Assembly (NCBI GenBank): GCA_000934665.2
Contig: JYFJ02001928.1
Location: forward strand, 1-64,000
From: Catajapyx aquilonaris
Taxonomy: Eukaryota
Length of the DNA: 64,000 nt
Direction: 5' to 3'
Shown: positions 1 to 64,000 of the stretch, piece by piece
Layout: every line of letters begins with the position of its first letter
Numbering within the stretch: position 1 is the stretch's first letter
The notes under the pieces: generated by a model
What the model saw: only the letters and a program-made list of their open reading frames with translations
Databases searched by the model: none
What the model was told of the DNA's origin: nothing
Translations under genes and position numbers: made by a program

Positions 1-116
1 CTCGCACACTTATCACTAAAAACATGGAAACTTGTGACATGCCTCAAGTACCTCAGACCACCATCAACTGGCTTCAAATAAAAATTGCATGACGTCGAGA
101 GGCAACTGTTGCCTTA

Positions 117-227
117 GATGAGTTAATACTCTAATTATTCAGAATTTACTCGATGATGATGAGTTAATACTCTAATTTACTCGATGATGATGAGTTAATA
201 CTCTAATTATTCAGAATTTACTCGATG
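117..227. repeat. Short tandem repeat (about 3 units, gatgagttaatactctaatt[attcagaatt]tactcgatgat) in a DMXL intron
   Basis: Three direct copies visible; the middle copy lacks an internal segment. Confidence 0.85.
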
Positions 228-334
228 CATTCATAACACTACCCCACACATAGCATGAAACGTGTTACAAAGTTTTTGGACAGTGTAATTTCAGGGACTC
301 GTATTGACACAGTGCTACAAAATGAGCTGCTTAC

Positions 335-15300: not shown

Positions 15301-18300
15301 AAAAGCAGTTTCAGTATACAGTAGACAGAAGGAGGGCATCGCTATTTCCTCAGATCAGAATTTGGCCCACTGTGGAAGTCTCAGTACCTCTCCTTCATAA
15401 ATTCCCTGAATTAAATATTCATTGATTTCAATACTCACAGTATTTGTTCTCGTACCAAATCTTGACCAGCCTGTCTGCCTTTCCTGCAGTTGCAAAGAGT
15501 GTCCCATCAGGTGAGAAGGCAAGGTAGACCACGGGTGTGGCCGTGTGGCACTTCCAAATGCAATCCCATCCTTTGTCTTCTTCAACAGGTGGGGGCTGGG
15601 TGGTCTGTCCGCCAGCATCCTCCCCAACCTCAAAATGAACCCCATCTGCAGTTGCATTAGCTGCAGCCGTTGGAGAGCTTGGTGGGAGGCGGCACTTCCA
15701 CAGTTGCAGGGCATCCCCGCCAGTAAGGAGGCGAGTGCCTTCCAGATTCCAAGACAGTGTGTTGATGAAGCATTCGGCCTGGAATGTCCCTGTCTGTACC
15801 CAGCGGTAATCCAACAACTGAAAGAAACAGCATTGCATGAAGTGAGTGAAGGACCAAAGCACAAGCAAACGAATACAAAAGCTGAGACACTGCACATTTT
15901 GGCTATCACTGATGTTTGAATAAACCATGTGCAGTTGACCCCTGGTTATTCACACATGCAAATAATACTACGTAGTATTCAGTGTAACTGTCGTATTTTT
16001 TGATCAAGTAATTCATCTGCTTAGATTGCCTTGTAAATGAACTCATTATTGTTACTGAAGTGCAGTGGAATAAATGAGATATATGTGCTTGTGCTTGTAG
16101 TCATGGTTTATCCTTTATTGCGCCCTTCACTTTCATCTTTCCTCTGTAGTGATTTTTGGTTTAGACACTCATACACTGTGTAAATTGATTCCAGACACTC
16201 CACTATCAAGTTTTGCTCAGTAAACAAAATTACTCAATTGACATCAACAAATACTAATAGATGATTCAGATCCAGCATCAAATTATTCTATTTCTGGGTC
16301 CTCTGTGTAACCACACTAAAGTACTCATTCCCACAATTTAAATAACTTGATTCGCTCTAACAAGAGCACTGCACTCATCATAAACACTATGAATTGAAAC
16401 AATAAATTATTTCGACTCTGCTAATGCAACAGATTATTGAATGTGACCTTTGAGAACCTTTGCTGGACTGTGATAGCAGAGAAATGCTATGAAGTGGACT
16501 TTGAGAGGCTTCCTTCCTGCTGAGACTCTCATCTTCCAACTTTGTGGGAAGGCACAAGAGAGGTTTTGTCCACCTAGGGACACCCACTTACTGCAGGTCT
16601 AATAAGTACCTCTCATGAATCCATATGCCAGAGACCACAGACCTCCTTCCTCAAAGTTGGTACCACTCTTAACTCATGGAGAGGGAAGCAGATTTCATTG
16701 CAGTTTCACGGTGAATTTAGGTGTATGAAATTAGAGCTATCTGTCATGTCTATTAATCATGAAGATTAAGTGCAGAAAAATCCCTTCTTTACTACTCAGA
16801 ATAATGTTAGCTCTGGCTACTTTGGATCAATTTTCAGCCTAATATTACCGCAGTGGCATTATTATGCTGCAGATAAGTTAGATGATTCCCAACTTTGAAA
16901 AAGTAGAAATGTGACTCATTTTGGTATTTTAAAAAGAAATGATAACCTACACTGGCAAAAGAAACATGTCATGTATCGCTTCGAGACTTTACCGGAAATC
17001 ATTAGAAAATGTGATTTGTATAACAGTCTGCAAGTGATGGTGCTATGGCTAGCATGCTCATCTATTATTCCCATGAATGAAGGCTTACTTTGCATGTGCA
17101 AATAGGTTCAGAATTGTTACAGGTTGCACCTGTGTATAAGTTACAAGGTCAACTAGATTGCTTCCTGAATGGCGGCCTGGGCTGTGCATATCATTTGCAG
17201 TATGGGAGGTTGTATATAATGAATTACTGATAAGACCAGGGCTTTCCCACATTGACAGGAAGTGGGTGTCACACATTGCTGACTATCACCTCAATAGCAG
17301 ATATGTCCATTTCATGCTAGCTGACCTGAACTGCTCACAGAGCATGTTTCATAACACCCAGATATTGACACTTGCAATTGATCTCTACTCTGCCTCATTC
17401 ATTGCATGAACCCTGTTGACGAGAATTATTGTAACTATATTTTAATGGCAACGACAGGAAAATAATACCAACAAAATGTGGTCTCTAAACACGTAATGGT
17501 CAAGTAAACTTTCACTTTGCAGAAAGTTTTGTTGCTTGCTACTTTATAAGTATGTCATAAATCATGGGTATATTTCAGGTCTAATCAGTTACAAGATGCT
17601 AAAATTTATGATAATTTCATATCTACTTTCATGAACTGAAATTCCTATTGTTATTTACAAGCAGCCTTTCTCATTTATGTGCAATCACTTGCATCCCACA
17701 GCTATTAATACCTCTATGTTGTATCCCTTATAGTTACACTAATAATGTATACATATTTATATTCCACAAGTCTGGAAATGTATCCATCATCAGCATGTGC
17801 AAATCAAAATTTATGAAATAATGAATTGCCCAGTAGGAGTGGTGCTGAATAAAATCAGTCCTATAATCTAAGAACGAATTATTTTTCTCAAAGCAAAGTT
17901 AAAACCATGTACTTGTGTATTTGCACAACCTCTCTCTGTTCATATCTCAAATAATTTTAAACTAATTTTCCAATACTCTTTGATGTAAAAAGTAATAGAA
18001 ACTGAGAGAGATACACAGAATTTATTTATTAATTTCATTCCAACGGTTTTAGGCAAGCCTTAGTGAGTGCAACATACCCAGATAATAAACCTGAGCCATT
18101 CTGATATGATTTTTCAAAACACTACTCAGAGCCTAATCTAAATAGAGTACATTGTGTGCATCACCAAGGTGCCGCGCAGTCATAATGTATCCTGACTGGA
18201 GTCTCATTCATCATCCTTTGGCATATGACATGCTCATACACAATGAATCAGTACAAAACTCTGAAGCACATGGGATCTGACTCAGCTTCTTGTCAGACTT

Positions 18301-20468: not shown

Positions 20469-23400
20469 CTACGACCCAAACCAACTCAGGCTGGCTTCAA
20501 AAAATGCGGCCGCACTCGAACGAGTCGTCGGCATAGGAGATGCATCTTCTTTGGTTTTTCCACTTGACAGGTCAAGGGTCACCTGGAAAACAAGAATGCA
20601 TATTGAAAACATGGCATTTTCATGGGTCATATACAAAAAATGCAGGCCTCTCACAAATTACACACAAAAGAGTCACTGAATTATTCACTGCAAGCTAATT
20701 GCAAAATATTAGAATCTAGTCACGTTTGATATTTAAACCAGTAGCAAACTTATTCGTAAGTAACCAAGGGACAAAATAATCACACTTCATACGTTCACCT
20801 GGTTTACCAGATTATGTTAAATCAGATTCAGATAAATCGCTGCTCATACGTTCAGGATAACATGGCTAATCATAGGTTTTTCATTAAGTTTTATTCACAC
20901 AACTATCTGATTTTTAACATTAGTGTTGCATAAGAATACTGTCAGCCTAAAAAATGTTAGCAAATCACGTTACTGCAAAACATTAATTATCACACCCAAC
21001 TCACTTATCACGAACACTTCCTCAACGTTCTGAAAAAGGGCGAACATTACTGGAAAATTGCAATGAGACAGATGGTGAGAAGACCCTACCTTTGGTTCAT
21101 CCATCCTTTTCGACTTGACCTCACGTCCAGACGGCAAGGTTGCGAGAGGCAGAAGGGGAAACCAAGGCACTCCAGTGGACACTGCCAAAATGTTGGGCTT
21201 GTCCGGGGCGCTACCAGATTGCGGACGTGTTGCAGCCAGCAGGGCAAGCTTCTCAGGTGGTATCAATATGCCTACCACCAGCTGTAAAGACAACTTTAAA
21301 GTGGGAGGAATCCAGGAGTAGCCCATCTACATACCTGTGTGCGCTGTATGCATTTCTTCAGGTTCTGCTGAAGGTAAGGTGAAAATACGTCCAGGTCAAA
21401 TGGATCCACTTTGGCCTCAAACCTCTCACAGAGGGTCTGAATTCTCTGAGAGCCGTTCCTCACATAAAAGAGCTGGTCCAAGTAGCGCACGTCAAACAAA
21501 AGTTGCAACGCCTGGGCCTGCATCTGCACCTCCAAAGTCTCGTAGTGAGACAGCAGCCGGTCCAGCAACTCCATGGTTAAGCTGGCCTGGATTTTTCTGC
21601 AAGCAAGACATGTCACTTTCTTCCCTTGAAGTCAACACCATATGGTTTACAACTTGTAAGTATTAATTGTGATGTGCCTTACCTGGGAAGTGCATGGGGA
21701 ATGACCTTGTTCACCTCCCTAACTGTGTAGAAAAGTGCGGAGGTCAGGGAAAGAGAGATGTGGGCAGGGATGCGAATAGACGATTTCACACTTCCTTCCT
21801 CTCCTTCCTCCTGAATCTGAACAACCTCCCACTCCTGGAAGGAATTTTTTTGCCAAGATGACATGTCTGGAATTGTACTTTCACTTCAATACTTACAGCC
21901 ATCATTGTTAAGGTAGCCTCAAGCGTTGTGCTGAGTCCTTGCACCAAACGGGCATGTCCAGATTCAACCACGCCTGACTTCCACTTCTCGTACATCACGC
22001 TGCTACAGTCACGGAACTCAGACTTGAGCCTAGTCCACTCAGGCAAGTCGGTCTTTGCATCCAACGAGGCACATGTTTGCAAGTGCAGGCACAGTTCGCA
22101 AGTAGCTAACAAGAAACGTGAGAGGAGCAGCAACTTGGCCGGATCTGATGACTTCAATTCTCCAGATTCCGACTGGACAAACTGGAGTAGACTGGACATT
22201 GCTTCTGTTACGCAAGCCCTCACTTGTGATCGAACCTGGGCTGCATCAGCATACTTGTCAAATGGTGGGGCATGTTCAGTAATAGTCAAATCAAAAGGGG
22301 ATGAATCTGACTCCGTATATGCAGACATGTCGTCAAGGAGCACTTTCAATTTGGTGTCCAGTGTGGTACACAGCGACTGAACACGTGGCGAGTACCCTTT
22401 AGTTTTCATCATTAGACCAGCTGACTTACGACTTGACATCCAACCAGGGCTCTCGGGTAAGTCTGAATCTGATTCAGACCATACAAACCACTGCAAGTCA
22501 TGTTCAGGTTGCGTAGTTTCACGCTGTGCCTCACGCATTGACTTCACAATTGCACTTCTCATACTATCGTCAATTAACCTGACTGACGCTTTGACAATTT
22601 CCAACACTCTTTGTGTAACACTCGAACGAAAGAACTCATCCCATACATTCACCTCGTTGTCAGATTCAGACAAGGCTTCCCACACTGTATCACGAACTGC
22701 TGATAAGCCACGTGCAGTGTCGACATACCGCAGCAGCTGAGGAAGTTCAGCATCCAGTTCAGACTTGAGGTTGGACAGCCATTGTTTAAGATGAGCCGAA
22801 TCAATCAAAGCATCAGGTGGAAGTGATGGCCTGTACTCAAGCACAACATTAGGCAGATGTTGTGGTCTCCATGACTCCAAGGCACCCAACAACGAGAGTA
22901 CTGGTGACGAATCAGCTCCCGAAACCAACTTCAAAAGGTTGGAAATAGCACCTGTTTGAAACACACGTGTCAAATGCACCGTGTGTGCAATAACCGCAGC
23001 CATTTCAGATGCTTGCATCCGAATACCAGCATCCGACTTGAGCACATGCCGCACCGCTTCAGTCCGTGACGGCAAAAATACGTCTCTGAACACATCATCA
23101 GGTGATGCTCCCTTCAGTAAAGCCACGGCTGACATGCAACCAGTCACCGAATCCTCTTCGGCATGTCCCACCTGCATCTGCACTCTGCAACCCTGAAGCA
23201 CCGCATCGCCAAAATGCTCCAGCTGACTCCACTGCCGTCCCAGCACAGGGAAAATCCGGGTAAGCGGCAACTCGCCCCAAGACTCCAGGGTGAGACCGGT
23301 GTGTACATGACGTGCCAGCAAATACAGTTGGGATGCCTAGAAGGTGATGGCGATTAGTCGCTTAAACTTATTCAGTGCTGGGGCATACCTGGAGGTAATC

Positions 23401-23787
23401 CAATCGCTCGACAGCAGCCCATATCCTCTCGGGGATATCAAGGAGCAGCCTGATCCTGACAGCCACGGAGTAGTACCTCCCTTTGTCCGCTCGCCTTGCC
23501 CCTTCCGATGCGGCACTCCCTAGTCCGCCAGCCCCCAGCAGCTTCCCTTCCACCTGCCCCAGATGCACGATGAGACTGTTGGCCTGATCCCGCATGTCGC
23601 TGATGGTGTCTGCGGCCTCTATCAGATCCCTGTACCTCTCCCCGACGGTGACCCGCAGCTCCTCCTTCTTCCTCTCCACCTCCGACCGCAGCCTCTTCCT
23701 CACCTCCTGCACCTCAGCCACGGACCGCTCCTCCAGCAGCCTCTGGGGGTCCAGCCCCAGCAGATCAGACGGATGCAGCCACGACAT
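20469..23787 (-). CDS. COG1: Conserved oligomeric Golgi complex subunit 1
   Basis: Vps51-like N-terminus EVERKKEELRVTVGERYRDLIEAADTISDM; ALQLLFDVRYL and VDPFDLDVFSPYL motifs. Exons: 23389-23787, 21897-23336, 21683-21834, 21335-21596, 21090-21281, 20469-20582, phases consistent. Confidence 0.95.
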
Positions 23788-24195
23788 GACCTACAACATG
23801 TGTCAACGGCCGACACTGAAACTATATGGAAAGCGCAATATTAGTACTGCACACCACTGCTCTGTGTTTACACCGCTTATTAACATATGTACCATTGACG
23901 TAATGCGATTCATGAGCATCTAATGGCCCAGTTAAACCATGGAAAACATTAATATGAGGCCAACTCACCTCCTTCCTGACAAGTAAAAGAGATGCAAAAA
24001 TTGACTGAAATGAAGGGCTGCCAACGCGGACTGGAACGACTCCTCTCCCGGGAAAAAGTCGCGGTAGTTTTGCGATACATGAGGCGGGATATTCAATTGA
24101 CTTCAACACGGACGATGACTACAATGACGAGTAACAAATGACTTGAGTAAGAAAGAAATGAATGGCAAATATTAACTTGCTTTATTGCCATGCAG

Positions 24196-28029: not shown

Positions 28030-30760
<2,731 letters not shown>

Positions 30761-31870: not shown

Positions 31871-32976
31871 ACCCTAATTTTTCACTCAAACCTCTGGTGT
31901 CTCTTCATACCAATGAAATGAAAGCCTCCAATCCTTAATCATTACAAACATTATTTGTTTTCATTTCATACTCATACTCTCTGCCCTTCAACGTAAAAAG
32001 GAGCAACAATGACTCAACAATTATTATTCGACTTTGCAACTGACAAAGGTTCGTTATGCCAGGACTTTGGGATCCTGATGGATCCGAAGCATTCCAGAGT
32101 GGTTGTCAACTGATTCGTAGATGTGGCGTACAAATCTTATTAATTTCATTTCCAGTTTGACACCTACAGAGGCATAAAGGCTTCACACACACCCTACAGC
32201 CTGAAAACGGGGGGGGGGGGGGGGGGGGGGNGTAATAATTTGAATTGTCACATTTTACTGACAGGAAAAGACACTTTTATTTTCATAATTATACCTGCAT
32301 TTCACACTGAAATTGGGACAGCTTTTTCCAGAGAAGCAACTGTCTCGCAGTGGAAAACTCATTAACATTAAACAAAAGAAAACGAAACTGAAAGTAAAGA
32401 AGAATAAATAAAGGCAGTGCGGCATGACGGCGACAGCAACAGTCCTTATACATGTTACGTACAATATGCCAAATCATGCGACTCACTCTACATTAATTAT
32501 TTTATTCTGTTTGATGGCATATTAGCACGTGCTAAACTTTTAATATAAATGACACCGTTGATGACACCAACATAAATGAACTTTTCCATTGCACTCCACA
32601 TGGGTTGGGGGTCACTTATACCTGGGGATTTAACTGCCACATGTTCTTACTTACATGTGTCTTTAAAAAATTGAGTGCATCCCAATGAATCAGCTGAATG
32701 ATTATTAACTAAGCTCTTTGGAGCGGGCCAGGCGATTCTTGCCAAATTTTAGATTTTCGCGCGAATTCTTTTTTTTCTTCTTTTCCTTGCTTTGAGCAGC
32801 ATTGATCGCCATCTGTTGTCGGGGAGTTGAGCATCCCTTGGTTCCACCTATCGGTTGGAGGCTCAACTAGGCTGCGCTTCCAACAACAGAGGCCCTTTAC
32901 CTCTCTTTTTCAGTTAATAATTCCTCTTTTTTTTGTTTGCTTTGGAAATATTTACACAAATTGGAATCTTGCAAAG

Positions 32977-39538: not shown

Positions 39539-42311
39539 CTACAGATGCACAGACATAACTTCCATATCGAGCCTCCTTATGACGTCTGGAGTGTCACAAG
39601 ATCTTGGCCTGAGGCTCATGCAGACAGGGATGTGGTCTGTGAGTCCATTGAGTGCAGTCACAAAGGAGTATCCTGTCACTTCTGTGGGCACTTTTCTGCT
39701 ACGTGCTATGCGATCTATCCGCCTCATCCCACCCCAGGGTTCTGCACGCACTTTACCCTCCGGGTCAGTCTTGGGCTTTGCTGAGGCCAGGGCCAGTGTT
39801 TGAACCTGTGGAAGTGCATGCAAATCAATGTATTGTAGAGGGTGTTGGCAGAAATGTTAATCAAAGCATCCTCTGGGAAAACCATGCCTACTGGGCTAAC
39901 GCAGCAAGAAAAAATGTGCATTGTAAACAAAGATGCCATTCAAAGCTCAAATGCAATTAGTAGGAACATGTAATTGCAGTTACATGAAATTGACTTATGG
40001 AATGTACTCATTGCAAGAAAGACTTATTAAACCAGCCTCTTACAGTCAGCTCACCTCGACATCAGCATCCACTATAAATATTCTCCTCAGCTCATCATCT
40101 ATGAGGACCTTACGGAAGTTTTCAGGGGTGTCCAGACTAGCATCATACAGTGTGAGCTGCCTCAGCTCAGTCCCCACTGCCCATCCATGATCCTGACCTG
40201 CCTCCTTGCAGCACACATCCTCGTATTCACAAAATAGCTCATGGGACTGGCATGAGCTGTCACCTGAAAAGGAGCCAGAAAATATCGAGATACAATTTAA
40301 ATCAATTTGTGATGCTGAGTTTACTACAGCAAAAAAAAAAGAGAGACAATCATTAAATTGTGTGAAGCTCACTATTTCATGTAACAACTCAACAGAGGCT
40401 GATCGTAAATTGCGTGACGTCAGTGTTTCTCATTACTGAGAGGTAGGAGTTTTCGAATGGGTCCGGGTGCACTGTTATGTAACATGTTTTTTTCTTGGTG
40501 CATTCTAGCTGTGAAATTTTTACGAGGAAAGAGGAGCAGTGGCGAAGTGACAATAAAACCGGCAATGTGCGCACGAGATGGTCTCAGGGTGTCTCACTGC
40601 CAAGGCATTGCATCAACTTAGCTTACAATCAGGTCTCTGATTCGGTTATTATGTGCTGTGTTGTGAGGGATTGGAAATGTAACTTTTTTTGGACTTGATC
40701 TTTTAAGATGATTGTACTCATATTATAATTATTAATATTCAAAACAACACAAACCTGGTGACATGTTGTCAAAGTTGAAGTCACCTGAAATGACATCGAA
40801 AAGTACATTGTCCGAGTCCTGCCTAGTCCTCTTTATGAATCCTTGGACAAACTCCTGCAGTTCTGAGAGCTGTGAGTGGACAACGGGATCCTGCCCCTGG
40901 TAGGCTTGAGTATGGACATTAGCCAGATAGCCCACTTGTTGATTCTGTTTGGAGGGTGAACCTAGGAGAAGCTTCACGCAAAGAACACCATTGCAGATGT
41001 ACTGCGCAAAGGAGGTGCGGTACGTGAATGTGTGGAAGTCCGCCTCCAGGATTGGGAATTTGCTCGCCAGCATCAGTCCACTGCCTTCAAAGAGAAGAGC
41101 AACACAGCAACATGTGAAAAGTTCTTTGCAGTTATGCTTATGTTTATGATGTATACGTATATGCACATCACATATTGATACAATTTGCTCCTATTTCTAT
41201 ATATTTCCCAATAGTATGTGACACATTGCAAGTTGCTACCCTAGATGTTCTTATGAGTGATCAGATAGTCAGGTGAATTCGAGGGAAAATATGAGCCAAT
41301 ACCAGGGATGGAAAAAGAACTGAAGAAGCGCATAAAGGCATATGGAAAAAGAACCGCTTCTTCGGTTCTTTTTCCATCCCTGGCCAATACCAAATGAGTT
41401 TTGATAAATCATAGTACATCTCTTGTGGTTAAGCTCAAAAAATGTATGACCTCTCGACAAATATATACATATTTTGCACTTAAATAAAGTGTAGGTCCAT
41501 AGCAATACGATTATGCAAAATATATTAATGTGGAATAATTGTCTAATGATGTGCAGTGTTGTGTAGTACACGTACCCAAAATGCATCGATTTGTGCGCAG
41601 CCCATATTCCCCAACGTCATACACAAAGTAGGGGAACTCGCTGCTGAGCTGCTTCATGAGTACGCAGGAGAAGTACCTCTCCCACACCTCCTGGAAGCAG
41701 ATGAAGTCCATCACTGGGAACTGCGTGTGCACACTTTCTTCCTTCTGTCCTGAACCTGACAAGCATTCCATGTTTTCAAGTGACTTCCCACTGTGACTCA
41801 AGAGCTTTCGTGCTATTTCAAGCAAGCGGAAGTGAACCCGTCCATTGTTGTTGATCCTACTCAGGAACTCGGGTGCTAACAAGACATTAGCAGTTGCGAA
41901 TGTGAATACACGGGACGACACATCACCCACAGGCAGGTCTGGTGGTTCTTCAACGCATGGCTTGTTCTCATACTTGGCATAGACCAACTTCTGTTGCCTC
42001 CCTAGAGTGCAGAGTATGACCCACAGCACCATACCGCACAGGCCACACGGCAGGAGTGCTAATAGCAGTGCCACATGTGCAGGTCCTACCAACAGGTACC
42101 GGTACATCCTCCTGGTGGGTTGCTGCTCTGAAGGGGTGACGGTGAGGTAGCTGGAGATTGTGAGGCTCAGTGCAGTAAGCCATGGGTACATCAATATGTA
42201 CGCAAGCTTGTCCAGAAAGCTCTCCAGGCGCGTGTGGTAGCGGCAAGAGGTGCTCATTTGGAGAAGGCGAAGTGGGAACAGGACGCCAACCATGCAGCGG
42301 AGATCCCACAT
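39539..42311 (-). CDS. Neutral sphingomyelinase, SMPD3/SMPD5-like (EEP fold, two N-terminal hydrophobic segments)
   Basis: ATANVLLAPEFLSRINN, DFICFQEVW, GSGLMLASKFPI, HTQAYQG, GDFNFDN, RRIDRI, GLTDHIPV. Exons 41576-42311, 40755-41084, 40055-40263, 39539-39805; an acceptor near 42400 suggests an upstream non-coding exon. Confidence 0.9.
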
Positions 42312-42909
42312 GATTGGGTGAGAAGGAGATAAGGATTAGTCAGAGGATACTGTTGATAAGGATGTGGATAAAATTACATGTCCGGCACTTTCAGCCTTTC
42401 TGAGAAAGAGAGATAAGGCCAGTTGTTAGCATTACCTACATTTCATTCCAGTTTATTTACTTGTGTCTACTATGAATTTGCCAATGAAATGTACCTTCCC
42501 CTGGGAAATAACTTTCTCGCTTTAAAACTTAAATTACTCATTTGCATTGTGAATGCTACTCACAGGAACATATTGCTGTGTTCTTGTTATTAATTGTTGT
42601 AGTTGTTGCCAACTATTGAAAACAAAATTATCTCTGTACACACCCCTGATCATACTCATCAGCATACATCATATTGAATAGTGAAGATAATATCCGAATG
42701 GATGTCATGACCAAGAGGTTTACTAATGAGCCAAAAAAGAATAAGTCTAGAAGTAAATTTCCATTTTTATAACCAGTGTGCCGATTCTTTGTCATGAAGA
42801 CATCAGTTCACGTTTCAGGAGAATTTTTCTCTCCCTTTCTTACTATGTCAAGGCTTTTGAACCCATTTTCTGATGTTTGAACTCGCTGCCAAGAAAATAA
42901 TACTCTGAC

Positions 42910-48800: not shown

Positions 48801-49653
48801 GCCAAAGAATATTTTTGAAATATAAAAAATGACAAACTTACTCATATGAATACTGGTGATTTGTTCGTTTTTACAGTTATATCTCATTATTTATTTCATT
48901 GTTTGTCATATTTATTAATTTGTAATATTTATTAATTTGTTTGTAATATCCTTCATTCATTCATTCATCGCTGGTAACCCCATCTTGGGAATATGCCTTG
49001 AGTGTAATGAATGAATGAATGTTTGTAATGTTTAGAGCTCTTTATTATTATTTACTTATGCGTAGGCCTACTATTTATATATTTATTATTTACTTATTCG
49101 TAATTTTAATTACATTATAAAATGACCTCACTGGTCATCACCGCTTCCACATCCGTCTCCATGCATGTCCCATTAGGATTATACTGTACATCTTCCTCCG
49201 CATCAGACTGAAAACGTACGGCGACTTTATTTGGCTAATAATATATTGTGTCTCTTTTCAAATCTCATTCCACTGCCTCGACGACCATGTTTGCCGTAAC
49301 TATACCCGAGTCTGAAATGAGTGTTGGCAGTCTTGAGGCATTACGCAGTGTTTTCGGCATGGCCGGTATGACATATATACTGCGGGTTTACACTTCAGAC
49401 ATCTTGTATTGTCACAAAAACAATGGCTGCATCGAATGGAATGGATCATGACTGTCTGGTGCTGTCTGGCCGGATTTAAAGGAAATATTGGACACTAAAA
49501 ACCTCGCTATAAAAACTCAAAATGTTTTTTCTATACTTCTTGATTTAATAACATGCTGAATTCTGTAACATAAGTGGACATACCGCAGAATCTACCAACT
49601 GGTACGACAAAGAGCGCAGCACGCCATCAACATGTGTAGCAGAGAGTGAAGTT

Positions 49654-52600
49654 TTAGAGGTTCTTGATGAGGACCATCAGTGGAAGGATGATCAGTCCGG
49701 TGAAAAACGTCGGTCCCATGCAAGCGGCGCACTTATCCTGCACAAAACAAAACGAAAAAATTAATCATGGGAACTGCACGAGCGATGACATAAATGTACC
49801 CACAAGGACAGGAATTGCTTCGCTCCAAACAGCAAGCAGATGCGAATATTTGCAAAAATCAACGGTTCATGACTTCATGCATAGGAAATTGCAAGCACCA
49901 AGCAATTTTATTTTTGTCCGTCATGCCATTAGGCAAGACCCAGTCGGTGTACCTATACAGTACATGACTGTACTATACAGGAACTTATTGCTGCTTGCTT
50001 ATATTATTCCTTTCATGATGCACAAAATTACATAACCACGACATATAGTGCGGGATGTGTTATGTCAGCGCAATGCGGAATAATAATATTCCACAAATTA
50101 GTAGGCATGTAGTGTACGTTATATTGAATTACATGAATACAACTGTAGGTGATTGCCGGCTTCTACAAGTACTTCGGTATAACCATAAGGATAACACCTT
50201 GATGACACTAATGTAACACGTTTTTTGTCCATGGGAATTCATCCCCATTTTCGTGTTCGCTTAGGTCACTCGTTACTCGTAGTGACCTTCATTTCCGTCT
50301 GAATAACCTTGTGTTTGACCTCGGGGCAGTCCAAAAATTTATTGCTCAAAATATTGGGGGATCTGTTGTAGGGGGGGATACAACAGATCGCCCAATAATT
50401 TGAGCAATAATTTTTTGGACTGCCCCGAGGTCCTGCGAGTACTGCGACTTTTCTGCGAGTACCTGACCAGGATCTTTTTTTTTTTTTTGTAACGGTCATG
50501 CAAGGGCAGCCGGGTCCTGCTTCTTATTATCCTCTGGCACCCCAATAATTTGTGAAAATCCGTGATGTACGACGACGATGATGATGATGATTTAGAATCA
50601 TGTGGGCCAAAATATTGATCGGCCTTTGCGGCCAAAAGCGGACAATACCCCACCCGTTGGCCATATTGAAAGTGTTATTTTCAATACCTTGGTATTTAGA
50701 TTTTTTGATAGCCTATCTACACTAAAATTACATTTTTTCATAGATATTTTTATTTTAAAAGTCACTATTAATTTGACGTTTATTGTCCGCGCGTACAATA
50801 TACCTATTAGACTTGTACCCCCAAAACCTGCCCAAAACCCTCCTGTATACGGACAAGCGACAAAACGGGGCAAAGTGCAACCCCCTCCCCCTTCCCCCCT
50901 TCATTTGTCCGCGCGGATTATGGACTGCCCCTATGTTCAAATAATTATTATATTGCTTTGTTATTTGCAATTTGTTCAAAATTCTCCGATTTAAAACATT
51001 TTTAAAGGTAATTTGAAAGCGGCGTAAAATGAAGGGACGTAAAATGAAGGGGCCTAAAACAAGCAGTAGCCTACCTGTAATTTGATTTTTAGCAAGGGGC
51101 GGTGACTCATCTTCCCAAGGTCACTTTTCACCTTTTAAGCAACTGATGACACTTTGTGCTGGCAGCTAAGTGACACCAGACAAGTGAAAAGTTTTAGTTC
51201 TTTTCTCTGTAAGTTACTATATAAATAAGTCACTTACTTCGATCTCGGCTTTCTTCTTCTCAATAGATTCCTGGTAGGTTTTCTTGGTCTTGTCGTCTGG
51301 AAGTTCTGAAAGGTTATTTTCGAGGCATTTTTTGTAGTCAGGGTAGTACCTGTCGGCAGCTAGAACAAGGCACATGTTTAAAAATGAGAAGTTGTATATA
51401 CCACCGGCACACTCTCTGATTTCATTTCATTGTCAAAAGTTAAACGGTTAAAGGAATGCCAACTGTTCCCACTGAGGTCATATTCATTTCCGTAGATGGA
51501 CGTTGAGTATTTCACACACAACTTACTTGCACATGTCTGCTGTAGTTAGGTTCTTCGTTCCTCCAGCAGTTGCCTCCACAACTTTTTTGACGTCCTCGGG
51601 GCAAATAATCGGCTGCGGGGCGCCAGTCTTTGGGGGGGGGGGGGGGGGGGGGGGNNNNNNGGGGGGGGGGGCGTCTTCTTCCGAGCAGACATAGCACCCT
51701 GCTGGGAAAGAGTCAAACCGTCATAATCATGTCTACATTCATGTCTTTCTGGGGCAAAGCCTAAACTACTCTATGTCGGTAGTTTAGTTAATATCAGTAC
51801 TTTTTTCGTTTCCTATATACGCCTCTGTTGCTTTTTCCTTGAAAGGTCCTCCCTTCTGTTCTAGTCAACGAAAGTAATAAACATTGTCAACAATAAAGCA
51901 ATAATTCCAAGGGTGCTTCACTGACAGATGCGAGTGTCCTATTGTTGACACTGTTTACTCATAAAAAGCCAAAGTGAGGTCCAGGAAACGGTAAAGTATA
52001 CCGAAATACTATCTTGTGGGCCTATATACTGTATAAGGTATGTAAGTTTCTTTGTTTTTCAAAATGAGCTTGGACGCCACTGCAGTTTAGTTCAGCCCGA
52101 CGATTATGTAGGTAACTTGGAGTAAACCAAAGAGTTCTGCTATAATATGATATAAGAGAAAAAACTTTCCCTTCAGTAAAAACTCTTCAGTAAGACCTCA
52201 GTGGCGGAAAGGTACTGAAACAAGGCAGGCTCACGTAAGACCTTCACCAATTAAGATGTACCATATAGGTCTTACTCAAGCAATTCTGAAATTAACGCTC
52301 ATAAAGTAGCCTATCCTTTCTGAAAACAGTTCCATGAGCCAATGTACTTTCTGAAATTAGGAACCGGCTCCAATATATATTAAGTTTAGTATTTTGAATT
52401 TCTCTATGATTGGAGAGAATTTATTGCCATAAAACATTATGCACAACCGTCGTCTCTCTGAGTACGGTACTAGTTTTTAATGATTGCAATGTTAAAATTT
52501 TGTAATGTATTGTCATAAATTTGTTAATTATCTAAGGTCCTTTTCTCGATGGGATTCTGCATTTTCAAGAGCGAACAAAGTCTGTGAGGATGGGCAGAGT

Positions 52601-53294
52601 TCCCCCCCATAAATGTAACTCTGCCTACTGATATAATAAGTAGTTTGCATTATTTTGTACAATTTTTTTACGAGCCATTCAGCACAATACTCTAACGTCA
52701 GGATCTGTTGGATCTTGTTGGTTTCCAGTTGTGCCAACTAGCAGGTTGTTGTCCAAAGCGTTGTTGTCAGTCAGTAAAGTTTGAGTAGGCACAATTTGTA
52801 CAACTGGAAACCGACATTACAATCAAATTACCTTATGTATCCTGACTTTAGAGTCACCCTGTATTGTGCCGAATGGCTCGTAAAAAATTGTACAAAATAT
52901 AATGCAAACTACTTATTATATCAAGATTATATCAGTAGCCTAAAGGGGGGAAACCATTAAGGGAAAAGCAGGTGGAACGTGGGTGGAACTGTGAGGTTTT
53001 GAACACAGATTCGCAACGTCCTATTACACATTCGGCCCCTTGATTAAGAAACGGAATTCCGAATAGTTATTGAGCAAAAAAATAAAAAAAATGTATTTTT
53101 AATGGTTTTGGATTTTTTTGCGGATTACTGAAGAGGAATGAAGTAAAAGTGTAAATGGTAGGAAATCAATTCACGACAGTGCGGATCTGTGTTCCAAATT
53201 TGGAAGCTCTTATTACCTGCAGCATAATCTGAGCTAGGGCGAATGAAAATAATAAACGCGTAACAACAAGAACAAGCTGAAAAAAATAAATCAT
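49654..53294 (-). CDS. Small secreted, probably GPI-anchored Cys-helical protein with poly-Pro linker (neuritin-like cysteine spacing)
   Basis: Exons 53217-53294 (MIYFFQLVLVVTRLLFSFALAQIMLQ), 51527-51698 (GAMSARKKTP(P)nKTGAPQPIICPEDVKKVVEATAGGTKNLTTADMCK, contains an N gap), 51238-51349 (YYPDYKKCLENNLSELPDDKTKKTYQESIEKKKAEIE), 49654-49737 (DKCAACMGPTFFTGLIILPLMVLIKNL*). Canonical donors gtaata/gtaagt/gtaagt and cag acceptors; phases 0/2/0; frame across the homopolymer gap needs a 1-nt adjustment. Confidence 0.75.
50317..50933. mobile_element. TIR element remnant containing a 116-bp hairpin
   Basis: Hairpin 50317-50432 (54-bp arms gacctcggggcagtccaaaaa...gatctgttgta); a further copy of the terminus tggactgccccta ends at 50933. 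Confidence 0.65.
51632..51671. other. Poly-G tract with assembly gap (N)
   Basis: G-run, 6 N, G-run; a similar G-run ending in N lies at 32209-32231. Confidence 0.9.
52599..52954. mobile_element. Foldback/MITE with long imperfect inverted arms
   Basis: ctactgatataataagtagtttgcattattttgtacaatttttttacgagccattcagcacaatac... mirrored by ...gtattgtgccgaatggctcgtaaaaaattgtacaaaatataatgcaaactacttattatatca; inner arms ggtttccagttgt / acaactggaaacc. Confidence 0.8.
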
Positions 53295-53782: not shown

Positions 53783-56700
53783 ATGAGGAACCTGCACGTG
53801 CATCGCCTGCTGGAGGTGCCCGACCCTCGCCTGGCCCAGGGTGTCCAGGCCATGTGCGTGGACACGGACACCGGACGCGTCTACTTCGCAACTCAACAAG
53901 CCCTCGCCGCCATCGACACAAGAGGTGGAAAAACCTCTGTTCCAAGAAATACACAGCATAATTAATCATCATCGACGCCACCACCACCATCATATTATTA
54001 TTATAATATTTAAATGATATGCACATAATGCATTAATATTTACATACAAACATTCAATCACAGCATTTTCCCAAGATGGGGTTACCGCCATTAATCTGCT
54101 GTTAATATTAACATTTAAATAGTATGAGATATATTAACATTCAAATAGTACGTGATATATTAACATTTAAATAGTACATGATATATTAACATTTAAATAG
54201 TATGTAATAATTATATTAACATTCATTACACAATAATGTTATTATTATGAATATCATCATCCATCACAGAGTTTCCCCCACCAATATTAATATAACTCTA
54301 ATCAGTCTAATATAATTTTGGGAAAATGCCTTCATTGTGTGTGTTGTATAAATTAATTAATTATTTTTTGAAAATTATTATCATTGTCTACTTTAGGTGA
54401 AGGACCCCGCACTTTGGAGGTGCTGCATGAGTGGGAGTATTCAGCGGGACGTGTCGTTGGGATGGCTTACATGCTGGATCAGTACAGCTTGTGTCTGGCC
54501 TTCTCGGAGGGTGATGTTTGCCTGTACTGTACGAACACGGGGTCGGTGGAGACTGTGGGGGTGGTCGAAGCAGGCATAGAGGCCGTCCAGTGGAGTCCGG
54601 ATGAGGAGCTGATGGCTGTCATGTCCGGGAAGGGAAACCTGGTGCTAATGACCAGGGAGTTCGACGTGGTGGCGGAGGTTCAGGTGCATCAGAGCGGATT
54701 CGGAGAGTGTGTGCCTGTCGCAATCGGATGGGGGAAGAAGGAGACACAATTTCATGGGTCTGAGGGAAAAGGGGCTGCCAGGAAGGTCGGGGAAGCTGCG
54801 ACGAAAGTATGGCCATGGGATGACCTGAAGCCCAGGATCACTTGGAGGGGAGATGGACAGATGTTCGCTGTTGGAGCTGTTTGTCCGGAGATGAATTGCA
54901 GGAGGTATGCTTCCATTTTGTTGATATAATTTTAGTAGGAAATTCAATGATTGTTACTTTACAGGTTGCGTGTGTTCTCGCGTGAAGGCCACCTGATGTA
55001 CACTGGCGAGGACAGCTCTGGACTGGAGCAGCCCTTGGCTTGGAGGCCATCAGGTGCCATCGTGGCCACGTCTCAGCGCTTTCCAAACAAGCACGTCGTC
55101 GCCTTCTATGAAAAGAATGGTCTTAGACATGGCGAGTTCAAGTTGAGGTTTGAGCCGGAAGAAGCCACCGTGTCTGACATCAGCTGGAGTCCAGACTCGT
55201 CCGTCATGGCCCTTGTTTGCGTTGGGCTCGACAAAAAGTGGACCAAACTGCAGCTGTGGGCAGTGGGAAATTACTATTGGTACTTGAAGCAGGAGGTGGA
55301 GTTGGCAAGCGACGAGGTGCACCTGCAGTGGAGTGACACCACTCTTCACCTGTTGTGTCACCAGTACATGCAGTTTGGGTGGCACTGGCAGGTTGATCAC
55401 AGCAACACGGGCATAGTGGCCGTCATTGATGGGTCTACAGTTAAGGTGACGCCCTTTAACAAAACTGTAGTTCCGCCACCTGGATCCGCGTATGAGGTAC
55501 AGCTGGCCTGTGCAGTGTCTCAGGTTGTGTTTGCACCTGGGCTGCTGCGTGTTCCAGAACAGAGCGTTGAGGACTCTGGATTTGTTGAGAGTGTCGACCC
55601 GCCTGGAAATGACCCCAACAACATGGCTGTCATTACATGCGACGGACGTGTTACATTTTTCAGTATTGTAAACAACACGCATGTCACAATGGGGACGTAC
55701 GCAGTCGAGGGCGTCCATGGTCGGCTGTACAACTGGGCTTGGGTAATGCGGGACACTCTGGTCTGTTCATATTCAGCTGGGTTAGCCATCTTGGAAGCTG
55801 AGAATATCGGGACTGAAACTGGCCGCCTTTATGTGAAGTCACGAGTTGTGATGCCAAGATCCGTAACAGGTGTGAGTTGCCCATTTGAAGGTACCGTAGC
55901 AGTTCAGACAGACGGTGGAACTGTGCACTTGCACAACATGGTAGACTCATCCAGTAAGGATGTTGGATGCTCCGGGGAGTGTTGGACCAAGATGGAATTG
56001 GCCAAGGTCGGAAGCGAGACTGCCCTGTTTTGCCTGGGTTCCAGACAGAGGCTGTACGTCAATGGCACGGAGATTGTTAATGGCTGTAGCTCATTCGAAG
56101 TGAGCAACGGTTTTCTGGTGTTTGTGACCACCAAGAACAGGTTGCACTGCTGTCAACTAGAAGAAACATGTACAGGTACGTCATGCTTCAGCCACCATTG
56201 GCCAGAATCAATCTCATTTGTTTAACAGGCAAACTTCAGGAGGCATGTGCATCAAGTGAGGCTTCAAGACGCATAGAGCGTGGCTCTCACTTGGTGGTAG
56301 TCATCGACACCAGAGTTGTGCTGCAAATGCCCAGAGGCAACCTGGAAGTAGTTCAACCTCGGACTCTGGCACTCCATGGTATCAGCAATTTGCTTGATAG
56401 GTGAGTTTGGCCGCATAACCTTACATACTTTGTATAAGCCTAGAAATGCATCTGGTTCAGCTACAGTTTTTGTCATTTTCAGCGGTAAGCACCGTGATGC
56501 GTATGAAATAATGCGCAGGCAGAGGATCAACCTGAACCTCTTGTTTGATCATGATCCGTCCCAGTTTTTGCGGCAGACAGAAGAGATTGTGAAGAAGATT
56601 GATGAACCCACATGGCTCTCCCTGTTCCTATCCGACTTGAGGTAAGAAAGATTATTATTTTTATGGGTTTCATAGATAAATAACATTTGCATTTACAGTG

Positions 56701-58585
56701 AGTCGGACGTGACAGAGACTATGTACAGTGTTGAGTACAGCGGCAGACCTCGTCCGTCAAAGCCTCTTTGGAACAGCAAGATTGACCTAGTATGTGACGC
56801 TACACGACGCGCACTGGAGACGGTAAATCCAGACAAATACATGCTTCCCATCCTGACCTCGCATGTGAAGAAGGCAAAGCCAGAGCTTGATGCTGCCTTG
56901 CTGCGGATAAAGTCTCTGAAGGAATCGGCTGGTTACAGCACTACACCTGATGAGTGCTTGCTGTACCTCTCATTGTTGGTGGATGTCAACGAGCTGTATG
57001 ATGTTGCTCTTGGAACGTATGACTTTGATTTGGTTCTGATGGTGGCGCAGAGATCACAAAAGGATCCTAAAGAATACCTGCCATTTTTGAACTCTTTGAA
57101 ACAAATGGAACCTGAGTATTGCCGATACACTATTGATGTTCACATTCATCGGTATGACTCAGCATTGGTGCACATCAGTCGATGCAAGACCAAATTTGAC
57201 GAGTGTTTACAGTTGGTCAAGTCGTACAGGCTGTACGCTCAGGCAGTGAAGCTTTTTGAGCGTGGTACCGCAGAATACAATGCGATTTGTAAGGCGCATG
57301 GGGAACATCTGAGAAGTATTGGACGCCACTGTGATGCAGGACTGGCTTTTGAACGTGCTGGAGAACTGCAGGCCGCACTCGAGGCATACACTGCTGCAGC
57401 GGAATGGAGACAATGTTGCATCATTGCCGAGAAGCTTGGGTTGAGCCTTGCCAATTGCCAGCGAACGTATTTGCAACTTGCAGCAAAGTTGAAGTCTAAC
57501 GGGCGGTAAGATCTAGTCAGATATCACTCTGCATTTCTATGAAAGATCCTCAAGCACTTGTACTTATTTCTCGTTAGGAATATTGATGCAGCACGTCTAC
57601 AGGAGGAGTACCTTAAAGACGAGGAGGAGAGCATAGCTTGCCTGCTTGAGGGACAAGCTTGGGAGGAAGCCGTGAGGGTGGCGTCAAAGTATGGTCGACT
57701 TGACCTTCTGAAGACGCACGTGGACCCGCAGGTCATGGACAGGTATCACAGCGTCGCAGAAGGGCTGCAAGACATGAAGGAATCCTTCCTCAAATATGCT
57801 GACAGACTAATCGTTGTGAGGGAAGCTGCCGAGAAGGAGATGCTGGAGCTGGCAGGTAATGGATTAAAATCTCGTATGCTATTCACATTGCTGAGTGGTA
57901 TTACAAGTTAACCTTCAGGTTATTTTATATTTTCACAGAACAAAACGTAGAGCTTGTGGATGACATCTATTCCGACACAAGCAGCATTGCAGGATTATCT
58001 GATTTGAGTGGTGTTTCTCGCACAAACTCACGGGTGTCCAGGTGAGCCTGCTTGCCATTGTACGAATGCGTCCAGTTGATTAAGACTTTCCTCATCCCAA
58101 GCCGTACCTACCAGTCGAGCAAGAGCAAGCGCAAGAGAGAGCGCAAGAAGCTGAGCCTGAAGGAAGGCAGTCCGTACGAAGACTTAGCGCTAATGGCCGC
58201 CCTACACCAGCTGGTTGCAAAAGCGGATGGCATGAAGAACGACGTCGGCTTACTCTGTAGAGCCCTGGTACGAATCCAGAGAGAGGCAGAGGCAGAAAGC
58301 CTTCAAGGCGAAATGGAGTTGCTCCTGAAAGAGATGGTCAGCCGGAAAGAAGTGATTTGGTCCAGTCAGGAGACACAATTTGGACCTGAGCACACGACCA
58401 ATGCCATTGTCGACAAGATGAGGCAACGTAATCCTGAAGCTTCTCTTGATTTTGGTGAGTACGCAACATGTGATCTCCACTTGCAGCAATGACGAGTCAT
58501 TATCCGCCTTTTTGCAGATCCAGCGTACTTGAGGCCGCCAAAAATTCAGGATGATGTTGACTGGAAGTTAAGCATCTTCAGTTGA
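53783..58585 (+). CDS. ELP1: Elongator complex protein 1 (IKAP/IKI3 family)
   Basis: MRNL N-terminus, GWGKKETQFHGSEGK, ITWRGDGQMFAV, EKNGLRHGEF, LQMPRGNLE, ALGTYDFDLVLMVAQRSQKDPKEYLPFL, basic patch SKSKRKRERKKLSLKEGSPYED. Exons 53783-53924, 54397-54904, 54965-56175, 56229-56400, 56483-56641, 56699-57505, 57578-57855, 57939-58041, 58102-58454, 58518-58585. Confidence 0.97.
54105..54223. repeat. 26-bp minisatellite (about 4.5 copies) in ELP1 intron 1
   Basis: Unit atattaacatttaaatagtaYRtgat repeated in tandem. Confidence 0.85.
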
Positions 58586-60126: not shown

Positions 60127-62091
60127 TTAGATGTGAGTATTGATGTCTGAAGAGGTATCAGAGGAAGAGGAAGATGAAGGACTTGCGGTTCGTCTTTCTG
60201 GGCTTAAGGTGAGGCTTGAGCTGCTGGAGTCGGACCAGTCTAGAACCAGCTGGAGGGAAAAGCGCTGGACAGCCGCCTCTCGGGCACCACCCGACAGAAG
60301 AGCTCCCTCTCTAGATAAAGAGAAAAGCAAGCTCAACATCTCGTTGCGAACATGACAGCATGTGGCAGTTATTCCTGAACGCTTCCAACAAAGGCACAAC
60401 ACTTGACATTTTGCCAAATTCATATCAACAATGTTCTCTTTGCCTTGAGCCTTCAAGATGCTGCAAAAGAAAAGAGAGATCCATAAGATGTGAGGCCTAC
60501 CTACCTGTGCCTCCTGGCCTGACTGGGAAGAGTGAGGCTGGTTCTGTACCCATGTGCCACGCTTCCAGCTAGGCCCCCTGCCCTGCCCCCAGGTGGTCTG
60601 CGATGCAACGTCATTGTCTCGTGCGGAGTTATGTTGGGCTCGTCCAGGTAGCGGCTACCCCTAGCTGACTTGCAGTTCTCGCATTCTGAGCGGTAGTCAT
60701 CGTTGTCATCCACGCAACTGCAGTTGCTCTTGTTCAAGTCGTTCATGGCAGTTAGGTTGGTGGACGTCGATGGTAAAGGGGCAGGAGAACTGTTTGCGAG
60801 GACAGATGGAGGCGGCGGGATCTGAGTTGGCAGTGGGGGTGGCAGTGGGGTTGTGGAAAGAAGTGGCGAAGGAGCGGCTGCACCCTCGGGTGTAGTTGCG
60901 GCTGGGTCTGGAAGCAGTGATGAAGCTTCACCAGCCAAAGGAGCCGGGGCAGCATGAACCACTAGGAAACCATTTATTATTATTATCCTGCATCAAAAGA
61001 CCATTTGTTTGAATAGTTTGAACATCACATCGCACCTGCAGTGGCACCGGATGACTCCTCAATAAATGCCACAGTCGTCGTCGGTACTGCGGCTGGTTGG
61101 TTTGCAGCGGCACCCTCCACAGCCGCTGCCTCCTCCGTTCCTGCGGCACCCACCTCAGCCGCTGCCCCTTCAACACTAGCACATGCTGGTGCTGCCGCTT
61201 GAGCAGCTGCTGCTTCCGCCTGGGCCGCAGCCACAGCCTCTTCATAAGGCGGTGGAGCTTCCCCTCTAGGGAAATAGTTTTCTGGCGGTTTCCACCAGGA
61301 GTAATGCGAGGAGGGCTCATCATAAAGGAAGTCAACCCTTTCCTGCCCCTGCAAGCAAGTGACGCTCCCAGGCAGATATCCAATACTGCCTGTGATGTAC
61401 CCGACACTCCCTAAGCTCCGCTGATCCTCATGAAGCTGGCGGTTTTGACGCCCCCGAATGCGCCGCTGCCTCAGGCGATGGATCAGGAAAAACAGGAGTG
61501 ACAAGGACAGGATAGCGGTCACCCCACTGGCCACCAAGCGCAGACCCAAGTCCGCAGTACTGTCGCCGTTACCCCCATCCGAAGTAGGCGGTACAGGCAG
61601 GGTGTTGTCGAGGCAGATAAATTCGCAGCAGAAGTTTCCCATAATAAACGTCTTGCAATCCTACGCAAATGGAACAATTAGACTATGCCGCTTCGGTTTG
61701 AACATGAGGAATACCTGAGGCGGTGAGCAGAGGACAGCCTTGCAGAGCTTGGGGCCGCCATTGTCACAAACGCAGAGGGTGCAGGCGTCAGGCCCCGGGA
61801 CGTAGTGGATCCCATGTGGAATGCGACGGCCGTGAAGGTCCGTGCACTCACCAGTCGACACCGCTTCTGCAATGGAAAACGGCAAGGGTGCAATTATAGT
61901 GTACGTCGACGGACTGCGACCGGACTTCACTTGCGGCTTAACCCCTCTGAAAATGTTAAGTAAGTCCTCCATGGTGCTGCCCCGTGTAACGTACCAGCGA
62001 GGGCCATGAAGACGTGTCCTCCTCCTCCGAGAAGGGTCAGGCCTAGGCTGCAGCTGGCCAGGAGGGAGCTGCCACCAGCTCCAGCGCTCAT
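60127..62091 (-). CDS. DGCR2/IDD-like integral membrane protein (VWC domain, single TM, PPxY, C-terminal PDZ-type motif)
   Basis: VWC CTDLHG...PGPDACTLCVCDNGGPKLCKAVLCSPPQDC...CCEFIC; TM GLRLVASGVTAILSLSLLFFLIHRLRQRR; EAPPPYEEA; ends NTHI*. Exons 61995-62091, 61715-61866, 61036-61660, 60505-60961, 60127-60310; start exon less certain. Confidence 0.85.
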
Positions 62092-63153
62092 CCCCTGCCG
62101 CTGCTGGCCCTCCCTGATCCGGCCCTCCTCCACATCCGACCGAGGGGCCGCCCCTAGATCAGGCCCTGGGGCCAACCACACTTGGGATGACGAGGGAGGC
62201 CCCGAACAACAAGGCCGAATATCCCTTCATGACTGATTGATTATTAGCCAATTACTTGTTGTTGCCAGGTTCATGACGGGTGCCAGGTACGAGACTCATT
62301 TTTTAATTAGATAAAATGTGGGGGTAATTAGATGGGTGATTAGGCGTCTTGTTTGGTTTGTTTCAATTGTTCTAATTCAATTGTTGCGTTCGATTTTATT
62401 TGATGGATTTTAGTGATTCTGCGGATGTGGTTCTGGGATTGGCCGCACGTGTGCTGCGGCGCTGTTACGCACCTTCAATGAGCGCGTGATTCAAATAATG
62501 TTTTGTGTAATTGTATGTGCCTGTCAACAGATATGCATTGCGCACACATACCTGACTGGACAGCTTCCACACTTAACCAAGAAGCTAGAAAATAACTACC
62601 ATACACTCGCAGTACTGCACACATACACAGCCGACACACAATTTGGCATGACGGGGCAAGACTAATAAAAAGTCATGAAATGCACTTACAGCACAGTGTA
62701 TGTGCAATAAAAATGGGTAATATTTTGCATGTTCATTTTTTAATACCCTTACATGAAAATACAGTACTTGTACATGACTGGTTCATGTTGACCAGTCCCT
62801 ATTTGAAAATGTTGTCCCTGTTAACAATTCATAAATGCATACAAATATTGGTGGCGGGAACTACAGTATTTGACCATCATTTAAATGCCCTGCAGAGTAT
62901 TCATGTTTTTCTTCTTAGATGTCGGCTCCTATTCGCAATTTATTACGCTGGACAGTTCAGCGTATGTAACAATGAAATGGAAAGGGGGAAGAAGGCAGGG
63001 TTGTCATTTAAGGCAGTATCACTATACGTACAAATTGTTGCTCTGGCAGAGAAACGAGTTAAACATAACCAGAAAAAAAATGAGTTCATGGAAATGCCCT
63101 CACATTCACCAAGTACAAAATGAGTATTATTCCAAAAGCTCCATGAACGTGCT

Positions 63154-64000
63154 CTATGAAGAACTGTTCTGAGCTCTAAGTTCTTCTTTCAGCTTTTCTA
63201 CCTGGGCCTCTGCCCGGTGCTTGCTTTCCATAGTTGCTTTATGTCGCTTCCTCAGCATGTCAACAAGTGCTTTCTGCCTCGGGGTAAGATCGAGAAAAAT
63301 GTGTTTTGGATCTACGTTCTTCTTCTGTCGGCCCTTCCTTTGGACCAATGTTTTTCTGAGACGTTTGCATGGTTCACATCGCTTACTGCCGTCCACTATC
63401 AATGCGCACATCTTGTGCCTCCTGTTACCAAGGCTGTCCGTGAAAGATATAGCAGAGTCAATATCCTCAAGCTCTCCAGGCAGCAAATTCCCTTCACAAA
63501 CACTGACTTTGTCGAGTTGGTAAATTAATGTGTCCAACTGTTTATATGATTGGAGTGTGTCGCAAGGAATACCTAACTTTTCAGTGTCTAGGGGCATACC
63601 TAGAACACTGCATGTAATATTTCCCATTTCAGTGACCAGTAATTTCTTGTAGAAAGTAAGTCCAGGGTAACTAGCATCTCCTTTAGTGACAAACTGAGCA
63701 TAAAACACACTGCGAGGTCCCTTCACAGGAACAATGCGATTCCAAGAAAATGGGAGCTTAACTGCTTCGGCATTTTTGTAAAGTTGTATAAACAGAGGCG
63801 ACACCCTCCCAACAACCACTTCTTCATTGTTTGCACTGTCAGGTGGCACATCAGTTACGTCTTCAACAACTGAAACAGCATCTCTAATTTCATCTGCTGT
63901 ATATGCACGATCTGTCAATGGCAAGGCAAGAGCATTGTACTCATCTTCAATGACTTCAACTTCATACTTGAATGGTAGGTCCACAGGTGCATGGGCTGGC
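63154..64000 (-). CDS. Uncharacterised ORF, possibly N-terminal region of a THAP/P-element-type transposase; 5' end outside window
   Basis: 276+ aa uninterrupted ORF with C...RHxxC...CxxCxxLRxxL metal-binding-like motif followed by a basic coiled coil, as recalled from arthropod P-element-related proteins; no catalytic domain seen downstream. Confidence 0.45.
   Translation of the reverse strand, partial: PAHAPVDLPFKYEVEVIEDEYNALALPLTDRAYTADEIRDAVSVVEDVTDVPPDSANNEEVVVGRVSPLFIQLYKNAEAVKLPFSWNRIVPVKGPRSVFYAQFVTKGDASYPGLTFYKKLLVTEMGNITCSVLGMPLDTEKLGIPCDTLQSYKQLDTLIYQLDKVSVCEGNLLPGELEDIDSAISFTDSLGNRRHKMCALIVDGSKRCEPCKRLRKTLVQRKGRQKKNVDPKHIFLDLTPRQKALVDMLRKRHKATMESKHRAEAQVEKLKEELRAQNSSS

Follow-up and report, generated by a model that had tools for sequence, protein, structure and literature searches.

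A candidate unannotated small gene with a predicted secreted, GPI-type helical product in Catajapyx aquilonaris

The present analysis concerns a stretch of 64,000 nucleotides (nt) from Catajapyx aquilonaris (contig JYFJ02001928.1, assembly GCA_000934665.2, positions 1 to 64,000 of the forward strand), hereafter referred to as the window, and in it four short segments that can be read on the minus strand between 53294 and 49654, in DNA that appears intergenic. A preliminary description of the same DNA had joined the four segments into a hidden gene for a neuritin-like protein attached to the cell surface by a glycosylphosphatidylinositol (GPI) anchor. Codon usage, splice sites, control segments of the window, predicted folds and searches for relatives were considered together. 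The small gene, or at any rate the part formed by its three downstream exons, is probably real, and the interpretation favoured here, with moderate confidence, is that of an unannotated and lineage-restricted minus-strand gene with a secreted helical product of the GPI type.

Direct reading of the minus strand places the four segments and their GT and AG sites as the preliminary description had them, with junctions at 53217/51698, 51527/51349 and 51238/49737. Two donors carry a perfect GTAAGT and the acceptors read CAG/G (a stroke marks the splice point here and in Table 1). The lengths of the exons as assembled, 78+172+112+84, add up to 446 nt and leave a remainder of 2 on division by 3; six N (51655-51660) lie within the run of C in exon 2, about 40 nt long, and the reading frames on the two sides of this run differ. 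The 148-residue protein proposed earlier is therefore obtained only with a homopolymer one base longer (mod 3) than the assembled one, a caveat on the frame that had been flagged along with the proposal. Miniature inverted-repeat transposable elements (MITEs) had also been reported around the exons, and MITE-like inverted repeats were indeed found in introns 1 and 3; within the four-exon model they are restricted to the introns.

Table 1. Features of the candidate gene and its introns, with codon scores and their standing among 409 null open reading frames
Feature	Position	Strand	Codon score (bits)	Codons	Standing among null frames	Remarks
Exon 1 candidate	53217-53294	-	-1.7	26	equalled or exceeded by 44%	ATG at 53294; 26 hydrophobic codons, A-x-A type cleavage motif; donor CAG/gtaata
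MITE-like nested inverted repeats, ~295 nt	52629-52923					intron 1, noncoding; three repeat pairs
Exon 2, model of the preliminary description	51527-51698	-				acceptor cagcag/GGT; donor AA/gtaagt
Exon 2 start segment	51672-51698	-				behind strong acceptor cagcag/GG; TTGAC branch-like site, A at 51713
Poly-C run	51632-51671	-				11 C, 6 N, 23 C; true length uncertain; reading frame breaks
Exon 2 core	51527-51627	-	8.8 (past C run)	33	top 1%	first two cysteines and N-L-T sequon; alternative acceptors 51627, 51612
Exon 3	51238-51349	-	10.9	37	top 1%	acag/G to GAA/gtaagt; third cysteine and N-L-S sequon
MITE-like palindrome	50317-50432					intron 3, noncoding; 54-nt arms, 94% complementary, 8 nt apart
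Exon 4	49654-49737	-	7.9	27	top 1%	T-rich tract, tgtgcag/GAT ... TAA; C-A-A-C, small residues, hydrophobic tail
ATTAAA polyadenylation-signal-like hexamer	49544-49549	-				105 nt past the stop codon; motif match only

Codon usage was scored as a log-likelihood. The coding model was trained on 4,404 codons from 17 long open reading frames (ORFs) of the window; presumed non-coding DNA (about 18 kb, taken on both strands) served as the background and 409 ORFs of at least 28 codons as the null. Per codon, the three downstream segments reach 0.27-0.29 bits, within the span of 0.09-0.35 of the training ORFs themselves. Among the six frames, the proposed one ranks first for exons 2 and 3, and for exon 3 by a wide margin. 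A control of 36,412 nt was also searched for open pseudo-exons of 80-400 nt bounded by AG and GT; it holds seven, the best of them scoring 10.73, below the value of exon 3. At least one of the seven, at 30233-30384 on the plus strand, probably belongs to a neighbouring WD-repeat gene as a true exon, and this null is therefore conservative.

The joining of the segments was examined by enumerating all exon chains that are open, reach at least 110 codons and use donors with at least 7 of 9 matches to MAG/GTRAGT and YAG acceptors with at least 60% pyrimidines. The locus yields 34 such chains, and all 30 of those listed contain exon 2; the plus strand of the locus yields none under the same rules. 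The short model of the gene scores 0.216 bits per codon, as against 0.04-0.07 for the best chains from control segments. Codon usage, consensus splice sites and the fit of the phases thus indicate a probable coding function for the three downstream segments. The earlier claim of a hidden gene holds to this extent; its first exon does not look like coding DNA.

Depending on the choice of the 5' end, the predicted protein has 119-148 residues, with both a hydrophobic start and a hydrophobic tail. By script count, the spacings of 23, 8 and 31 between cysteines given in the preliminary description are exact, and a further spacing of 2 follows. The cysteines comprise four in the domain and one in the presumed anchor signal, the domain count being four if the attachment site lies among the small residues past the fourth cysteine. 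The C-terminus consists of C-A-A-C-M-G, about 15 hydrophobic residues (Kyte-Doolittle mean over 11 residues up to 3.0), three more residues and the stop codon. As a rule of thumb, such a tail, short for a membrane helix and with a central proline, would be easier to reconcile with a GPI signal than with a transmembrane anchor, and the two N-x-S/T sequons, together with the even number of domain cysteines, would suit an extracellular protein. GPI-anchored proteins as a class have small residues at the attachment site and behind it, a short spacer and a hydrophobic C-terminal end that lacks a cytoplasmic tail, along with a signal at the N-terminus. The GPI-signal layout proposed earlier agrees, on reading, with simple rules of this kind at the C-terminus, and its N-terminal signal would depend on the weak exon 1.

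A helical domain had also been proposed from the look of the sequence. The peptides of exons 2 and 3 were folded separately with AlphaFold2 in single-sequence mode. The exon 2 peptide (35 residues) is predicted to form a helix at residues 12-21 with a second beginning at 30-33 (mean predicted local distance difference test score, pLDDT, 65.7), and the exon 3 peptide (37 residues) two helices, at 3-15 and 19-36 (mean pLDDT 83.0). The helical character is thus found in pieces. Three helices in series are plausible from these separate peptides.

These features can be combined into an explanation of the locus. The core of the gene would comprise 51627 or 51612 to 51527, 51349-51238 and 49737-49654 and would encode about 95 residues, namely a short stretch at the N-terminus that includes the first cysteine, three predicted helices with three further cysteines and two sequons, and an end made up of the small residues C-A-A-C-M-G and the hydrophobic tail of about 15, with the stop three residues later. 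Exon 1 (53294-53217) would supply the signal-like start, allowing entry into the secretory pathway and the formation of two disulfides. The tail would most likely be swapped for a GPI anchor. The cell surface would thereby display a helical domain of about 75 residues, which may act as a binding or coat protein. The data themselves show the sequence features, a core whose codon usage resembles that of coding DNA, and predicted helices in the two exon peptides. Splicing, the use of exon 1, cleavage of the signal, GPI attachment, the disulfides and a role as a ligand are all steps that we infer.

Several observations weigh against this explanation. Exon 1, with its negative codon score, is not distinguishable from non-coding DNA and is the least secure element of the model. 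The DNA at this position is T-rich and gives hydrophobic peptides in two frames, and another ATG, at 53310, lies 16 nt ahead of the proposed start and out of frame with it. Upstream of the C run is the strongest acceptor, 51698, with its branch-like A at 51713; it would place the run inside the mRNA, and no YTNAY branch motif was found between this acceptor and the run, which speaks against the shorter forms of exon 2. At the other end of the gene, an antisense frame of exon 4 scores 11.0 bits and so outscores the sense frame with 7.9. The signal-like start and the GPI-type end were assessed with rules of thumb. Open ATG-to-stop chains of at least 110 codons occur in three of 12 control segments (2.7-4 kb), and a chain of exons alone is therefore not rare. 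Lastly, no homologue was found by any route, the queries being single exon peptides of 35-40 residues or a 69-residue ORF.

On the strand opposite to exon 4, a stop-free ORF of 125 codons (49658-50035, plus strand) runs antisense to this exon and to the intron upstream of it, with no Pfam match.

Some of these observations are also what an absence of any gene would predict, in which case short open frames and splice-like sites would have lined up by chance in repeat-rich intergenic DNA. The chains in a quarter of the control segments, the non-coding character of exon 1, the lack of a homologue and the broken frame all point in that direction, as do the stop-free ORFs of 100-130 codons without a Pfam match that are plentiful in the same 5 kb. 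Chance would nevertheless have to account for three adjacent segments that each fall within the top 1% for codon usage in the frames that their splice sites connect, for an exon 3 that scores above every control pseudo-exon, for the perfect GTAAGT at two donors and for a product that is coherent in its start, helices, cysteines and tail. The absence of a gene is therefore considered unlikely.

The 5' end deserves a closer description, as four readings of it stand side by side. In reading (a), the ATG at 53294 is joined to the acceptor 51698 and the C run is read as poly-Pro, giving 148 residues; the nine codons before the C run score 4.6 bits in this frame as against 2.4 and 0.2 in the other two, and the length of the homopolymer must differ from that assembled. 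In reading (b), the ATG at 53310 is joined to the same acceptor and the frame is open as assembled, at the cost of an exon 1 frame that scores -8.7 bits from this ATG. Readings (c) and (d) lead from the ATG at 53294 to the acceptors aaag/ACT (51627) or ccgcag/CCG (51612), both downstream of the C run; these are in frame without repair and give 124 or 119 residues, with no poly-Pro. Between 51700 and 54000, the only strongly hydrophobic ATG-to-donor candidates are those from the ATGs at 53294 and 53310.

The peptide from the ATG at 53310 is likewise hydrophobic, and if 53294 is the true start, it would belong to an overlapping upstream ORF.

A poly-Pro linker, as envisaged in the preliminary description, would consist of about 13 or more CCC codons in a row. 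In the 17 confident coding ORFs, CCC is a minor codon for proline (32 of 209) and the longest run of prolines is three, and pure long mononucleotide runs are unstable in coding sequence. The in-frame acceptors past the run, moreover, bypass the need for such a linker. The linker is accordingly doubtful, and the poly-C run is more likely to be non-coding, as part of an intron or of an untranslated region (UTR). The segment 51672-51698 ahead of the run may be coding, 5'UTR or intron.

A second long homopolymer, the only other long G or C run of the window, occurs at 32209-32231, outside the 17 training ORFs, where 22 G (32209-32230) are followed by one N. Together with the C run at 51632-51671, this suggests that long G or C runs with N calls recur in the assembly and are able to break gene models.

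The uncertain 5' end also leaves room for a real gene whose protein is not secreted, namely a small helical cytosolic protein that would lack a signal peptide and be tail-anchored to an internal membrane by its hydrophobic C-terminal stretch. Either exon 1 and the poly-C run would then belong to the 5'UTR, or exon 2 would contain the start codon, which could be the ATG close behind 51698 or the Met that precedes the second cysteine. Such a protein would agree with the position of the C run in the mRNA implied by the acceptor 51698, a pure C run being unlikely to be translated, with the lack of a coding signature in exon 1 and the out-of-frame ATG upstream, and with the C-terminus, where a hydrophobic stretch followed by three residues would also fit a tail anchor. 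It is harder to reconcile with the 31 codons from the C run to that Met, which score 8.7 bits as against 5.3 and 1.8 in the other frames and contribute the cysteine needed for an even number. The hydrophobic stretch of about 15 residues with its central proline is short for a membrane helix, and the two N-x-S/T sequons and the four spaced cysteines suit an extracellular protein. A non-secreted product is thus regarded as improbable, more so than the absence of a gene.

For the secreted, GPI-type product favoured here, relatives were sought in several collections. Pfam was searched with hmmscan at E <= 10 for the exon peptides apart, which at 26-43 residues give little power; no family was found on exons 1-3, and the only match on the exon 4 peptide was VirB7 (E = 0.15). 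A word-indexed protein search returned eight candidates for the exon 3 peptide and four for the exon 2 peptide (proteins of 71-2000 residues), none of them at E <= 10. In a metagenome scan with the 69-residue stop-to-stop ORF around exon 3, none of 593 pattern matches was confirmed by tblastn. The PDB sequence search gave no match for exon 3. In the ESM Atlas, the exon 2 peptide found unnamed short clusters only, with recognition below a useful level, and the exon 3 peptide no usable named match. A tblastn search of the joined model against the window returned self-matches only, the next match having E = 0.38, and thus no second copy in the window. Pfam matches on eight other ORFs of the region, including the 125-codon ORF antisense to exon 4, were limited to UBAC1 (E = 0.052).

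Two matches were examined and set aside. The exon 2 peptide has one PDB match (E = 1.7), a designed TIM barrel, which was taken as noise. The 37-residue exon 3 peptide has a sole match in an exhaustive phmmer search of 1.84 billion representatives, P0121, at E = 2.1e-07; it was rejected as a summed repeat artefact, since it is a five-fold repeat that matches only residues 12-33 of the query. The C-terminal half of P0121 (730 residues) consists of a motif of about 40 residues repeated five times, and the query, rich in K and E, gains its E-value by summing over the copies.

The weight of these negative results was gauged with an exon of ELP1, a neighbouring gene, as a calibration query. It found 971 proteins at E <= 1e-20 in a collection of 5.8 billion proteins; the top matches come from malacostracan crustaceans, followed by insects, with a best identity of only 34%. 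The arthropod origin assumed in the preliminary description agrees with these matches. The collection therefore includes no close relative of the organism, and the failure to find homologues of the candidate gene is weak evidence.

The full reading of the preliminary description, that of a divergent arthropod protein of the neuritin, RGM-N and DUF19 three-helix group that serves as a GPI-anchored neuritin-like ligand, contains a poly-Pro linker and has lost one disulfide pair, has to be judged against the same searches. At E <= 10, the peptides of exons 2 and 3 match neither the NRN1, RGM_N or DUF19 profiles nor any other family, and neither the PDB nor the ESM Atlas searches yielded a usable relative. 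The mature domain of neuritin carries six conserved cysteines, two of which are missing from the four-cysteine domain described here. The segment likened in the preliminary description to the neuritin core is one short C-x8-C with aromatic and acidic residues, too short to weigh. The linker would require the long series of CCC codons discussed above. In the direction of kinship, three helices are predicted in pieces, the domain bears cysteines and is probably helical in both proteins, and the frame from the ATG at 53294 is the best of three before the C run, over nine codons only. The overall layout also agrees with that of neuritin (CPG15; NRN1, PF15056), which according to a review has 142 residues, a signal peptide and a GPI anchor (PMC12715718), the candidate being likewise predicted as a protein of about 120-150 residues with a signal-like start and a GPI-type end. 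Such a combination of signal, small cysteine-bearing domain and GPI-type tail is, however, common to many unrelated small surface proteins, GPI-anchored ones among them. A literature search found no account of an invertebrate neuritin. Kinship with neuritin, RGM-N or DUF19 proteins is thus unsupported, and the full reading is very improbable. That the gene is truly related, as a very divergent arthropod form, to the GPI-anchored three-helix ligands of the neuritin type in vertebrates is, in the same way, given very little credence here.

Chemosensory proteins (CSP / OS-D) resemble the candidate as small helical secreted proteins of arthropods in which four cysteines occur and the last two form a C-x2-C, but kinship was rejected because their cysteine spacing is about 6, 18 and 2 rather than 8, 31 and 2, only the hydrophobic tail follows C-x2-C in the candidate, and no Pfam match was found.

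The surroundings of the candidate gene were examined in the same window, the DNA of which is of animal type. Pfam names three neighbours, ELP1 on the plus strand, a cohesin-loading-factor gene and a DCAF12-like WD-repeat gene. A crustacean ELP1 aligns over 54435 to 58423 on the plus strand, and we take the first coding exon of the ELP1 gene in the window to start near 53783 from the reading of the frame; the candidate exon 1 would then lie about 490 nt from the start of ELP1, in head-to-head orientation. Long ORFs of other genes that look coding occur on the minus strand at 1-15950, 21300-23800, 40000-42340, 61000-62160 and 63150-64000, and none of them has a Pfam match at E <= 0.001.

The locus is thus best seen as a plausible orphan gene, of an ordinary kind that is missed, to which no tie with neuritin was found. 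If real, it would add one more small surface protein to those that gene callers miss, owing to exons of 80-170 nt that lie amid repeats, and it illustrates how gene models can be masked or distorted by a homopolymer that contains N calls. The gene would carry greater weight if a comparison of the whole-protein fold tied it to the neuritin-type ligands; a true relative of that type would provide an invertebrate root for this signalling family.

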